From NCBI GenBank assembly GCA_951406725.2, contig OX597826.1:49042001-49106000 (forward strand): 64,000 nt of DNA. The letters run 5' to 3'. Source of the DNA: Octopus vulgaris (lineage: Eukaryota). How positions within the stretch are numbered: the stretch's first letter is position 1; each line of letters opens with the position of its first letter. This document shows, piece after piece, positions 4,268 to 41,192 of this stretch. Both the position numbers and the translations under genes were made by a program. The notes under the pieces are model-generated. The model ran no database searches. It was not told the origin of the DNA and was given only the letters and a program-made list of their open reading frames with translations.

Positions 4268-5084
4268 GAGGAAGGAAGGAATGGAGGGAGGGAGGGGGAG
4301 GGAAGGAAGGGAAAAAGGGTGAAAGGACAAAAGAAAAGGGAAAGAGGCAAGAAAGAAAAAGGTGAGAGAAGGAAAGAAGAGAAGAAAGAAATTAAGAAAG
4401 AAAGAAAAGGGGCAAAAGAAAGAAAGAAAGAATAAAAGAAAATGAGCGAGAGAGAATAAAAGAAAAGGAATAAAACATACAATAAAAGAATTTAAAGAAA
4501 GAAAGAAAGAAAAAAGAAAGAAAGAAAAAGAAAGAAAGAAAGAAAGAAGAAAAAAGAAAGAAAGAAAGACAGGAAAAAGAAAGAAAGGAAAAAGAAAAAA
4601 GAAAGAAAGAAAGAAAGTAAAAAAGAAAGAAAGAAAAGCTAATTATGATTCATAAGTGTCAGAATAACATAAAAACAATAACGACAACAGCAAAAACAAT
4701 AATCACAACAACAACAATAATAACAGCAAACGATACTAATAATAACAACAATAATGGTAATAAAAAAAAAGAAAACATATTGGAAAGTCTTTGTGTAGTT
4801 TTTGTCTTTGTAATATTTGTGTAGCCTGTTCTTGCAAATGTTCCAGTGATAAGTTTCCAATGGACTTTGAGAGAATGATTGTGAAAACACTTTTGTTTGT
4901 ATTAGTAAACAGGTTGTTTAACAACACAGAAAGCACATTTTTTTAATTTCTGCATGAGTAAGCAGGTTGTTTCAAATTCTATATAGGTGCTGGCCTAATT
5001 GTGTGGTTAAGAAGATTGCTTCCCAACCATGTGAATTTTTAGGTTCAATCCTACCGCATGGCACCATGGGCAAGTGTATTCTAA

Positions 5085-11273: not shown

Positions 11274-11518
11274 TGTAAATGTAATATGTGACAATTATTC
11301 AGTAGCCATAATAAAACTCTGAGTTTCGGATGTCGGGGTCGATATTCACACCACCATCTCTTCAGTTATCTGGCCATTGGAAAAAATGCAATCAGAAAAA
11401 GGTATTTTTTTCCGATGGCCGGAAAACTGAAGAGATGGTGGCGTGGATTTCCACCCCAACATCCGAAACTCAGAGTTTTATCATGGCTACCAAATAATTG
11501 TCACATATTACATTTACA
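11274..11518. mobile_element. Fold-back PLE-like element; each arm carries a hammerhead-like motif
   Basis: Inverted arms 11274-11387 and 11404-11518. Motifs at 11305-11374 (-) and 11418-11487 (+). Confidence 0.8.
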
Positions 11519-23869: not shown

Positions 23870-24023
23870 CAGATAGATAGATAGATATGTATATACCCAC
23901 ATGGATATCTATCTATCTATCTATCTATCTATCTTACTGTTTATATTTTTGTACTGTCGTTAGAGAGAGAGAGAGAGAGAGAGATGTATATACCCACATC
24001 TATCTATCTATCTATCTATCTAT

Positions 24024-24919
24024 CAAGGAGGGCTGGGCATGCCGTGGTTGATGATGCGCAGACACGCGCTGAGACTGCGGCATCTCTGGCTCTATGTAGA
24101 CGACGGTGAACAGGTGTGGTCGCCGTTTGTGAGGCACGCTTTCCCGCAGCTCGTCTCCATGACCGAACTGCAGTCGTGGATCAAAAAGAGGCCGAGGAAG
24201 GGCGAATGGCACCGCGAGTGTCGCGTTGCTCTCAAGCAACTCTGCCGTCCTGGGTCGACCTTAAGTGACTTCAACACAACCAAAGCATTCTATAGGGGTT
24301 TAGTGGAGGGGAGGTACGACGACGAACTCGGGGCGAACCTGGACGTCGACGAGGAGTACCTGACCCGCCTGTTCAGGACGACCTTCGGGCCAGGGCCCAT
24401 GGACAACTTCCAGAGATCCCTGGCCTGGCAGTGCTACCGAGAAGCGCTACCCGTTCGGGATAAGCTCTACAGACACGGCTCGAGAAACACGGGGCCGACC
24501 TGCCCGAGATGCGGTCAGAGCGACGAAACCGTTCTGCACGCACTCGTTCAGTGTCCAACAATTTCCGACCTGTGGGCTTATGTCGAACAACTGCTGTCAC
24601 GTGTGGGACGAGTCGGTTTATCAGCTGAGTCTATCGTCAATATTGTCACGCCTCCTTCCTTCAAACGGGAAGGAAGAGCTATTTTCATCATCCTTGTGGC
24701 TATGGCGAAAGAATGTATCTGGTGGACGCGTCTGAAAGGATTGGAGACAAACACTTTCCTCTCTGGTCAATCTCTCATCAACTTCTTCAAGTACCACTTG
24801 AAAAGGAAAGTGAGAGTAGAGAGGCAAGTTTTGTCTAGCGAATGTTTTAAAAAAGATGGGTGAATGTAGCAAGAATGGCACGTATGAATGACGAAGCCAC
24901 CTTGAGCATAGTCCTATGA
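24024..24919 (+). pseudogene. ORF2 C-terminus (post-RT region with zf-RVT-type CCHC zinc finger)
   Basis: GGLGMP motif, then W...EALPV and CPRCGQSDETVLHALVQC...LW. A one-base shift in the A-run near 24850 restores F-K-K-R-W...VL* ending at 24919. Confidence 0.85.
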
Positions 24920-25874: not shown

Positions 25875-27437
25875 TATATGAAATGCAAAATGGGACAAGA
25901 ACGCAAAACATCCGGACAGTTAAGTGATACAAAAATGGGACAACAAAACAATCCAGATAGACGATACAAAAAAGTTTTCTTTCCTCAGTCAAGTACCAGA
26001 TTATCTTCGAAATATCGACTGCGATTGATCTAGTCATCTATTTATCAATCTACCTATATTTACCTATCTGTTTATATGTGTCTATGTGTGTGTGTGTGTG
26101 TATGTATATATGTATGTATTTATGTATCAATGAACGTAGTGTACATATATGACGGTATGTGGCCAAGTGATTCGGGTGTTTGACTCCCGATCTCAAGATC
26201 GTGGTTTCAGTTTCCGAATTGGGCAGTGCGTTGCTCTTGAGCAAATGAGTAAAGCACTTGACTTCACCTTGCTCCGGTCCGTTCAGCGATAATCCTTCCA
26301 AGTTTAGGCAAAAGTCCTAAAAATTTGTGGGGAGGGGACTAGTCGATCACATCGACCCCTCCGATCTCGAAAGGATGAAAGGCGAAGTCGATCTCCGCGG
26401 AATTCTAACTCAGAATGTAAAGACGGGACGAAATGCCGCTAAGCATTTTGTCCGACATACTAATGTTCTGTTAGCTAATCGCCTTTCATTGAGCTATGAT
26501 GAGTACCAGCGAAGGACGAGAGTTCAGGTCGGGTCCTGTGATTCCGGCCATTTGTACGCCATGTATAAAATACATACATAGATGTGTGTATTTTTCCCTT
26601 GTTAACGTTCGTCCAACGAACTGGAACATGAAACTGAGTAACAGTTTTTGTGATATTTCTGCTGCATTTAAATAAAGCATATTACTGTGTACCACTGTGT
26701 ATTTGAGCATCTGTATGTTTGTCAACATTTGCCTTGTTTCACAGATTTATGTGCTTACTGTGTGTGCGTATATATATATATATATATACTTTTATTCAGT
26801 GAACAGGTCGCGGTCTTATGCGAGAACACCATTTTTAAAGGGTTTATATATATATACTACGTGCTTCTTTCAGTCTCCGTCTACCAAATCTACTTACAAG
26901 GCCTTGGTCGGCCCGAGGCTATAGTAGAAGACACTTACCCAAGGTGCCACGCTGTGGGACTGAACCCAGAACCATGTGACTTGGAAGCAAGCTTCTTCTT
27001 ATCACGCAACCACGCCTATATATGTGTGTATGTGTGTGTACGACGGGCTTTAAGTTTCCGTCTACCAAATTTAATCACAAGGTATTGAGTGATCTGGAGC
27101 CCTAGATCCCGCATAAAGGCACCGTGGACTCCGGATGCATTCATAGAGACAGACAGACAGACAGATGGATAGACAGGAATGTTTGCGGTGTAATGTTCGG
27201 TTCCTGTAAATAATTGTTTTTTCCTGTATTAGTGAATCAATGTAATTGTTGTTCATTATATTCTCAATGCTGTTGTTGTTGATGTTGTTGTTGGTGATGG
27301 TGTGAAGAAAAGGTTACAACTATTATACGAAATTACCAACGTCAACATCATTATCAACTTCATTATCAATATCATTAGCGACGAAAAGGAGGGTCTGGGG
27401 CAGTGATGTCTCTTAGTATCAATATATATATATGCTT

Positions 27438-27937: not shown

Positions 27938-28225
27938 AAAAGAAAAGACTATGTCATATAAACGTGTGTATGTGTGTGAGTGCGTGTATAAATGTACGTA
28001 TATATCTACGTATATACGTGCTTGTATATATGTACGTGTATGTATGTATGTATGTATGTATGTATGTATGTATGTATGTATGTATGTATGTATGTATGTA
28101 TGTATGGACAAATCAAAAGTAAAAATAAAAACAGAAAAAGAACAAAAGTAGTCAAAAGGATGTATAGCGTGAATATATTAGATTGACGCTCAGTAAAGGT
28201 TTAACGTGGAAGAAAAAAGGGGTGA

Positions 28226-28252
28226 GACGTTTCGAGCATGGCTCTTCGTCAG
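28226..28252 (-). ncRNA. Hammerhead-like motif, family E3
   Basis: CTGACGA-A-GAGC(cat)GCTC-GAAA-CG-T-C: canonical core and GUC triplet, but stem I pairing is not evident. Confidence 0.45.
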
Positions 28253-28432
28253 AAAGAAGAAAGAGGAAAAAGTCTGAGAAAAGCATGTGTACTGTTACGT
28301 GGTTGAAAAATAAGTGTATATGTATGTGTATCTGTGTATTTATGCATCTGTATGTTTGTCAACATTTGCCTATGTACAGATATATGTGTTCGTGTGTGTG
28401 CGTATATATATATATATATATATATACGGATT

Positions 28433-28483
28433 TTTGTCAGTGAACAGGTCGCGGTCTTATAGCGACGAAAATATTTTGACAAA
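28433..28483 (+). ncRNA. Type I hammerhead-like motif with G3-C8 core
   Basis: TTTGTCA-GTGAACA-G-GTCGC(ggtcttata)GCGAC-GAAA-ATAT-T-T-TGACAAA: 7 bp stem I, 5 bp stem II, palindromic AATATT stem III. Confidence 0.7.
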
Positions 28484-28558
28484 TTAAACTTAAATGTTGA
28501 AGTGAATCGAACGGCTTTTGTATGTTTCTTAAATGGCTAAAAACACCTTCCACGCTGC

Positions 28559-28620
<62 letters not shown>

Positions 28621-40434: not shown

Positions 40435-40807
40435 ATATATATGAAAAAACAAGTAAAAAATAGAAAATGCTAAAATAATTTTATAGTGAACATTTCAGTA
40501 CCGGTTTCGGTCATTTTGAGACCTTTTCAACTGTAACGATTAAATAATTAAATTTAGAAAAATTAGAAGAAAAGTTTTTTTAAACTACCTCGAACACACA
40601 AGTGCAAACAAGGGAGTCAGAGAAAGGCAGAATGCCACTTAAATCTGAACACTACTATAGAAATATTCTTTTAAAAAAACTTTTCTTCTAATTTTTCTAA
40701 ATTTAATTATTTAATCGTTACAGTTGAAAAGGTCTCAAAATGACCGAAACCGGTACTGAAATGTTCACTATAAAATTATTTTAGCATTTTCTATTTTTTA
40801 CTTGTTT

Positions 40808-41154: not shown

Positions 41155-41192
41155 AAACCTGATGATTGCGTAATGCATGAAAGTACTGGTTT
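41155..41192 (+). ncRNA. Hammerhead-like motif with canonical CUGAUGA core
   Basis: AAAC-CTGATGA-T-TGC(gtaat)GCA-T-GAAA-GTAC-T-G-GTTT; palindromic AGTACT; G at position 17 is predicted non-cleavable. Confidence 0.55.

Follow-up and report, generated by a model that had tools for sequence, protein, structure and literature searches.

The locus at 28433..28483 of a 64,000-nucleotide stretch of Octopus vulgaris DNA (GenBank assembly GCA_951406725.2, contig OX597826.1, positions 49,042,001 to 49,106,000 of the forward strand; the whole of this stretch is referred to as the window) has the outline of a hammerhead ribozyme with G at core position 3 and C at position 8, where the canonical core has C3 and G8. 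One may ask if it is a true hammerhead and, if so, whether the exchanged pair has been kept by selection, has arisen by accident in one element, or serves some role other than cleavage.

Anatomy of the motif and its neighbors in the window

The motif and its core strand are placed as follows.

28433..28483, plus strand: minimal type I hammerhead motif with a G3-C8 core, recognized from its sequence, a descriptor scan, its fold, and 4,951 G3-C8 copies with exact flanks genome-wide
28440..28446, plus strand: core strand, positions 3–9, with G3 at 28440, C8 at 28445, and A9 at 28446

The first-pass annotation had placed this core within paired stems, and helices I and II, the core, and the GAA are all located. 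Helix I is formed by seven base pairs between 28433–28439 and 28477–28483, and encloses the core G3-U-G-A-A-C8-A9, a single extra G at 28447 between A9 and G10.1, and a five-base-pair helix II (28448–28452 with 28462–28466) that has G10.1-C11.1 as its closing pair and a 9-nt loop. The GAA at 28467–28469 is followed by a palindromic AATATT (28470–28475) corresponding to helix III, and by U17 at 28476; the cut is predicted between 28476 and 28477. The motif has U4, G5, and A6, A9, G12, A13, and A14, the A15.1-U16.1 pair, and an H17 (here U). The literal C3-U-G-A-N-G8-A9 core is absent, with G3 and C8 in its place, so that the motif is a variant and not a canonical member; positions 3 and 8 are Watson-Crick complementary (G-C).

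The minimum free energy and centroid structures of a 56-nt stretch both contain helices I and II (z −2.9; 3 of 200 shuffles are as good), and a 111-nt stretch around the motif has a folding z of ~0 and is no stabler than shuffles. The AAUAUU duplex is near neutral in energy (−0.2 kcal/mol), and cofolding yields a strand-swapped dimer rather than a hammerhead dimer, the topology of which is pseudoknotted. A strict descriptor in which positions 3 and 8 are free has three matches in the window, versus a mean of 0.055 in 200 shuffles, and 13 matches in 864 kb (80 arbitrary 10-kb stretches plus the window, out of a repeat-rich 2.8 Gb genome), versus none in the same sequence reversed. The first-pass annotation had proposed counting the 3-8 combinations across the genome, and in this 864-kb sample all 13 are Watson-Crick (G-C 5, C-G 4, U-A 3, A-U 1).

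It had also expected that a standard search with a fixed core would miss such motifs, and the Rfam covariance models indeed report no hammerhead family at E ≤ 10 in 28428–28545; for the whole window, the 150 of 292 matches listed are microsatellite-driven miRNA matches only. The lack of an Rfam hammerhead match and the folding z of ~0 in the longer context are what would be expected of a chance hairpin within a repeat, not derived from a hammerhead. We regard this as extremely improbable, since the descriptor controls given above are at or close to zero and the motif occupies the same position in the pLTR as the canonical-core motifs of its relatives; judged from that position and from homology, a chance hairpin is refuted for practical purposes, and the motif is almost certainly of hammerhead ancestry.

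Further motifs in the window are the following.

26790..26823, plus strand: truncated local duplicate of the main motif, with the core and the 5' half of helix II only
40721..40757, plus strand: U3-A8 hammerhead from a different, very young Penelope-like element (PLE) family, with an inverted partner on the minus strand (position 3 at 40530)
41155..41192, plus strand: C3-G8 hammerhead of an older family
11422..11483, plus strand: C3-G8 hammerhead of another repeat family, with an inverted partner on the minus strand (position 3 at 11365)

The second G3-C8 core, at 26799, had been described as lying inside paired stems, and this is incorrect. It breaks off inside helix II; GAAA and helix III are missing, as is the 3' arm of helix I. 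Because it has ~90 nt of upstream flank in common with the 28440 copy (85% identity over 138 nt), it is a local duplicate of that copy rather than a second, independent example. The cores at 40724 (U3-A8), 41159, and 11427 (both C3-G8) are present with their stems as reported. In the 40724 family, all 41 matches listed are 100% identical over 161 nt, so that the U3-A8 family at 40500–40800 is probably still mobile, and the end of a GIY-YIG ORF lies ~0.7 kb upstream in 9 of 20 loci. The 41159 copy has G17 (A17 in 12 of the 15 family loci fetched) and a U-U in place of G10.1-C11.1, and the 11427 copy has one helix I mismatch relative to its own family.

Missing from the first-pass annotation is a canonical C3-G8 minimal hammerhead of a common repeat on the minus strand at 28200–28260 (position 3 near 28249), with the palindrome ACGT and C17, about 190 nt from the G3-C8 motif. 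We also note a 299-aa open frame on the plus strand (23964–24860), which we take to resemble the zinc-finger region at the C terminus of ORF2 in a Tx1/L1-type LINE, and, in one of the randomly drawn stretches (L168), a long C2H2 zinc-finger array in a 396-aa frame on the minus strand, presumably of the kind typical of the cephalopod expansion.

The Penelope-like element that carries the motif

The main motif lies within a larger feature.

28426..28562, plus strand: solo 5'-truncated pLTR fragment of a PLE family, comprising 5' UTR and the first ORF codons, with an ATG near 28533

The fragment has (TA)n on either side, and genome copies are 96–98% identical over the stretch. Most family copies are pLTR pieces of ~200 nt that end after codon 31 at (TA)n, often with an inverted partner, and in the longer copies an ORF stop lies ~1 kb upstream of the motif. 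The sequence of the fragment recurs twice in the full-length copy L391, before the ATG and again ~1 kb past the ORF stop, giving the order hammerhead, ATG, ORF, hammerhead, with the motif in both pLTRs and the second 4.26 kb after the first; the ATG is 92 nt behind position 3, and the ORF has a few breaks. All 27 ORF-linked rows (from 26 places) are G3-C8-A9.

The ORF codes for a telomerase-like RT with a YVDD motif, followed at the C terminus by GIY-YIG. Its structural model has a pLDDT of 83, and the best PDB fold match, a weak one, is Tetrahymena TERT (E 1.3e-6, TM 0.31); a PDB sequence search returned nothing meaningful. Of 40 homologues, nine have a Pfam match to RVT_1 and five one to GIY-YIG; the query protein itself has no Pfam match. 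By motif reading, the ORF translations have the C-terminal GIY-YIG with CCHH residues and a CX2-5CxxC linker, and the family has PLE traits in its direct pLTRs around the ORF, inverted 5'-truncated copies, and microsatellite targets.

Here and below, comparisons with published systems refer to the portions of the cited papers that were available. By the criteria described in Craig et al. (2021, PMC8557442), the element is classed as an EN+ PLE of the Neptune/Nematis type. It is like these in the C-terminal GIY-YIG with CCHH-type residues, the CX2-5CxxC linker, a DKxG motif, pLTRs, inverted 5'-truncated copies, and (TA)n targets, but unlike them in that the query protein has no Pfam match; the tree of its clade contains no named reference elements. 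A 3.4-kb tandem (L088–L090) was considered as a full-length element and rejected, as it has no ORF and is a local tandem duplication. A non-LTR retrozyme was likewise rejected; there are no head-to-tail non-coding tandem units, and the copies are solo, in inverted pairs, or ORF-linked. No hammerhead was found behind the ORFs of L240, L242, L245, L247, L248, L278, and L295, in contigs that often end early, nor behind the 85%-identity copies L385–L387.

The motif is like the minimal type I hammerheads (min-HHRs) of metazoan PLEs (Cervera and de la Pena 2014, PMC4209133) in its pLTR location, palindromic short helix III, G10.1-C11.1 pair, extra nucleotide between 9 and 10.1, and U17, which is common there, as well as in the many solo and opposite-strand copies and the presence of U3-A8 covariant families. 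All four of the min-HHR traits that the paper lists (consensus families with covariation, the 9/10.1 nucleotide, G10.1-C11.1, and a palindromic 15.2–16.2) are present or matched here. The difference is the G3-C8 pair, versus C3-G8 and U3-A8 in that paper, where 12 of the 12 alignment rows compared read CUGA.

Upstream of the motif, a branch-point/polypyrimidine/YAG signal is present ~22 nt before position 3 in 645 genome copies (e.g. L210). Among 104 copies examined, 46 end no more than 2–3 nt from the YAG and seven run through it, and this clustering of the 5' ends of short copies suggests a putative intron ending just before helix I, where the intron of D. virilis Penelope also ends (PMC4209133). 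No GT-AG splice joint for the putative intron was found in four contig sets, and contigs showed no molecule ends; as assembled contigs do not display RNA ends, neither result carries weight in either direction.

Positions 3 and 8 within and among families

With the flanks fixed and positions 3, 7, and 8 free, 4,951 of 5,498 genomic copies (90%) are G3-C8, and reversed-pattern controls give 0; G3-C8 is thus the state of the family, in keeping with the first-pass annotation, and not a private mutation of one copy. The other copies include 357 with G3 and a different base at 8, and 190 with a different base at 3; among the first 100 of the latter, 92 keep C8, two are A3-U8, and none is C3-G8. Inserted copies drift neutrally, with changes no rarer at positions 3 (3.5%) and 8 (at least 6.5%) than at the free position 7 (3 of the first 100 copies). 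The copies that are not G3-C8 look like the products of decay after insertion, and selection can apply to the source elements only, not to inserted copies. Mismatch copies, as seen at loci picked for their mismatches, are scattered over loop II haplotypes, mostly the older one; a propagating G3-G8 subfamily was considered as an intermediate and rejected, with the G-G copies falling in different loop II haplotypes. Contigs from three other organism labels (B, C, and D) have no change of ≥3% at 28440 or 28445; contigs drop rare variants, so that this result shows presence only.

The co-occurrence of three pairings in one window had been put forward as the strongest evidence for true hammerheads under past selection. 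All three pairings are present, but the trio is a weak test of covariation because the window families are not close relatives: the 40724 family is distant and falls outside the clade of the G3-C8 family, on a long branch of a quick tree. A stronger test is provided by sister families elsewhere in the genome that have homologous pLTRs.

The first of these is an older homologous family (342 candidates). Most of its aligned copies are G3-C8, helix II differs by paired changes, and the downstream sequence is clearly homologous (z 12.9). The closest relative at the protein level (57% identity) belongs to a family that the quick tree places as sister to the G3-C8 family (SH-aLRT 100). A pattern for its motif matches 3,757 times; the first 100 matches comprise 98 with C3 and 100 with G8, and at position 9 there is C in 94 of them, A in three, and T in three. 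The 1,311-aa ORFs of this sister family are intact, and 13 of the 29 loci listed carry the motif in both pLTRs, for example L312, where the motifs are at 54–110 and 4642–4700 on the plus strand and helix III is non-palindromic. The three A9 copies may represent an older subfamily of this C3-G8/C9 family. A natural A9C hammerhead was not found in the literature searched; a natural A9-to-U variant is mentioned in PMC10085705.

A further family (L215, minus strand near 1958; L163:1137; L076; L144; and L013) has U3-A8 in four of five copies. In helix II and helix III it shares sequence with the older G3-C8 family. At the N terminus, its peptide has homology to the peptide of the sister family (z 17.4 and 11.2) and, more weakly, to that of the G3-C8 family (z 5.2 and 2.5); the RT of this relative was not found. 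The U-G-A at 4–6, the GAAA, and U16.1 are kept in four of four related families, and helix II covaries between them. Metagenome elements in the same 24-row clade are either U3-A8 (L236, L243, and L244) or C3-G8 (L239 and L246).

Independent variation of positions 3 and 8 from family to family had been named as the observation that would count against the hammerhead claim, and it is not what the families show. With one state per family, the pair is Watson-Crick in 24 of 26 overall (0 of 200,000 permutations), in 12 of 13 genome families (permutation p 2.5e-5), and in 12 of 13 metagenome loci (p 0.003), the p-values being too small because the families are related. The tally was compiled by hand, with several families fetched on purpose and with relatives that are not independent; it left out 26 single-copy matches (13 of them Watson-Crick; a reversed control has eight matches, two of them Watson-Crick) and one weak G3-U8 match inside L305, and near-identical metagenome motifs were merged. 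The pair counts left out one alignment with a misplaced row and a shifted helix II. The sole non-pairing core among the 13 ORF-linked metagenome motifs tallied is that of L300.

The L300 motif, at position 1735 behind a distant PLE-like ORF, has A3-G8 and is otherwise well formed.

G3-C8 maps to one branch, and so represents a single event of two transversions that has been retained since. The chance that one G-C swap event is Watson-Crick is about one in four. The G3-C8 pair could be a neutral accident, with two substitutions, complementary by chance and fixed in one master element while selection was lacking, that were then amplified. The single branch agrees with this, as do the free drift of copies and the fact that no intermediate state is seen as a family. 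However, G3-C8 is still the state of two diverged families and of several subfamilies despite changes to loop II and the flanks, the mismatch copies form no lineage among the subfamilies over which they are scattered, and the pair is kept at family level throughout nearly all of the tally; an accident of this sort is therefore improbable in our judgment. The claim of true hammerheads under past selection stands to the extent that these are PLE-type hammerheads in which the 3-8 pair is kept, with the restriction that any selection would act in the source elements only.

Cleavage, retention of the swap, and novelty

In hammerhead chemistry the part of the base is taken by G12 and that of the acid by the 2'-OH at position 8 (PMC6155905), so that the base at 8 matters mainly through its pairing with 3. 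In the hammerhead of the Anolis PLE PAc (PMC11167929), C3G or G8C alone abolishes cleavage, and the C3G/G8C double mutant restores it only partly; the view that compensatory 3-8 swaps retain activity thus holds for partial rescue and not for full activity. PAc cleavage needs the element's protein, hammerhead mutants insert normally in vitro, such that cleavage is dispensable for insertion, no RNA-seq read ends were seen at the cut site, and the RT start is 111–118 nt into the ORF (PMC11167929). Cleavage of min-HHRs in vitro is poor, and it takes place only in dimers or when helix III is extended (PMC4209133).

The octopus family is like engineered PAc in that the core swap is identical and that the PAc RT start parallels the 3' ends of octopus copies. 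It differs in that the PAc swap is a laboratory mutant whereas in the octopus a family of several thousand copies carries the swap naturally, and in that PAc is a Poseidon-type element with an ORF that starts in helix II, versus an octopus ATG ~92 nt behind position 3 (PMC11167929).

The reading that we favor, with a probability of roughly 0.6 for the whole account including present activity, is that of a PLE pLTR hammerhead in which the G3-C8 swap has likely been kept by selection. The swap would be kept in replicating source elements, likely because it would preserve weak self-cleavage; the G3-C8 pair would replace C3-G8, with the 2'-OH of position 8 as general acid and G12 as base. Because helix III amounts to no more than a 6-nt palindrome, two motifs would have to pair, or the element's protein would have to assist, for the RNA to be cut. 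A weak cut after U17 would shorten the transcript ~56 nt ahead of the ATG, and also at the 3' repeat. Reverse transcription would begin at an internal point of the RNA, ~95 nt into the ORF, and insertion would use uncut RNA primed internally, which would explain why copies keep the uncut motif.

The young, intact sister family speaks against current function in its non-palindromic helix III and in the C9 of 94 of its first 100 copies, and C9 there indicates that the core constraint is not absolute in the lineage. The neutral drift of inserted copies, the near-neutral AAUAUU duplex, the merely partial rescue by C3G/G8C, the dispensability of PAc cleavage, and the poor cleavage of min-HHRs count on the same side. 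The C9 would fit a hammerhead descendant in which selection still maintains the fold with its 3-8 pair but cleavage is no longer meaningful, the structure acting instead in the binding of protein, in splicing, or in the start of translation. The placement of the motif, with a putative 3' splice site before it and the ATG after it, would suit such a role, as would the dispensability of PAc cleavage for insertion in vitro and the missing cut ends in PAc RNA-seq (PMC11167929), and other functions are not excluded by Cervera and de la Pena (PMC4209133). It is at odds with the fact that the covarying feature is the 3-8 pair, and with the U-G-A, GAAA, and U16.1 retained in all four related families. 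The 3-8 pair belongs to the catalytically active conformation of the hammerhead. On balance we think a non-cleaving role unlikely, though it deserves serious consideration, and retain weakly cleaving hammerheads as the preferred account.

Hammerheads in PLE pLTRs and the natural U3-A8 swap are already published (PMC3088659, PMC4209133). The octopus family is like the natural U3-A8 variants of Perreault et al. (2011, PMC3088659) in being a compensatory 3-8 change in nature; U3-A8 involves two transitions, whereas G3-C8 involves two transversions, with purine and pyrimidine swapped at the general-acid nucleotide, and no G3-C8 is listed among the natural variants in the available text of that paper. 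A G3-C8 laboratory variant is mentioned in PMC3884650, and in the literature searched, as distinct from print as a whole, there are engineered G3-C8 variants only (PMC3884650, PMC11167929) and no natural ones; the portions available of PMC2920678, bioRxiv 10.64898/2026.07.22.740005, PMC6765202, and PMC11014351 contain nothing bearing on the swap. The same searches returned no paper on octopus hammerheads, and the O. vulgaris repeat annotation (PMC13282606) lists Penelope elements and, in its available text, never mentions hammerheads. Within these limits, the natural G3-C8 family would be new.

A broader proposal, which we offer tentatively and with the odds somewhat against it, is that one small octopus Penelope group has walked positions 3 and 8 through C-G, U-A, and G-C, with C9 fixed in an intact, recently active sister; that no active G3-C8 hammerhead precedes it in nature's known repertoire; and that core changes beyond the tolerance of free ribozymes are tolerated by protein-assisted hammerheads of PLEs. 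If so, censuses based on CUGANGA would miss whole families of thousands of copies. At least 5,000 motifs of the G3-C8 family escape Rfam and searches with a fixed core, and ~3,700 of the C9 sister would escape likewise. A natural G3-C8 family would add a pairing so far known, in the literature searched, only as a laboratory rescue mutant, and the related families form a natural series in one scaffold (G-C, C-G with C9, and U-A), with which one can test whether the spread of a PLE requires cleavage by its hammerhead.
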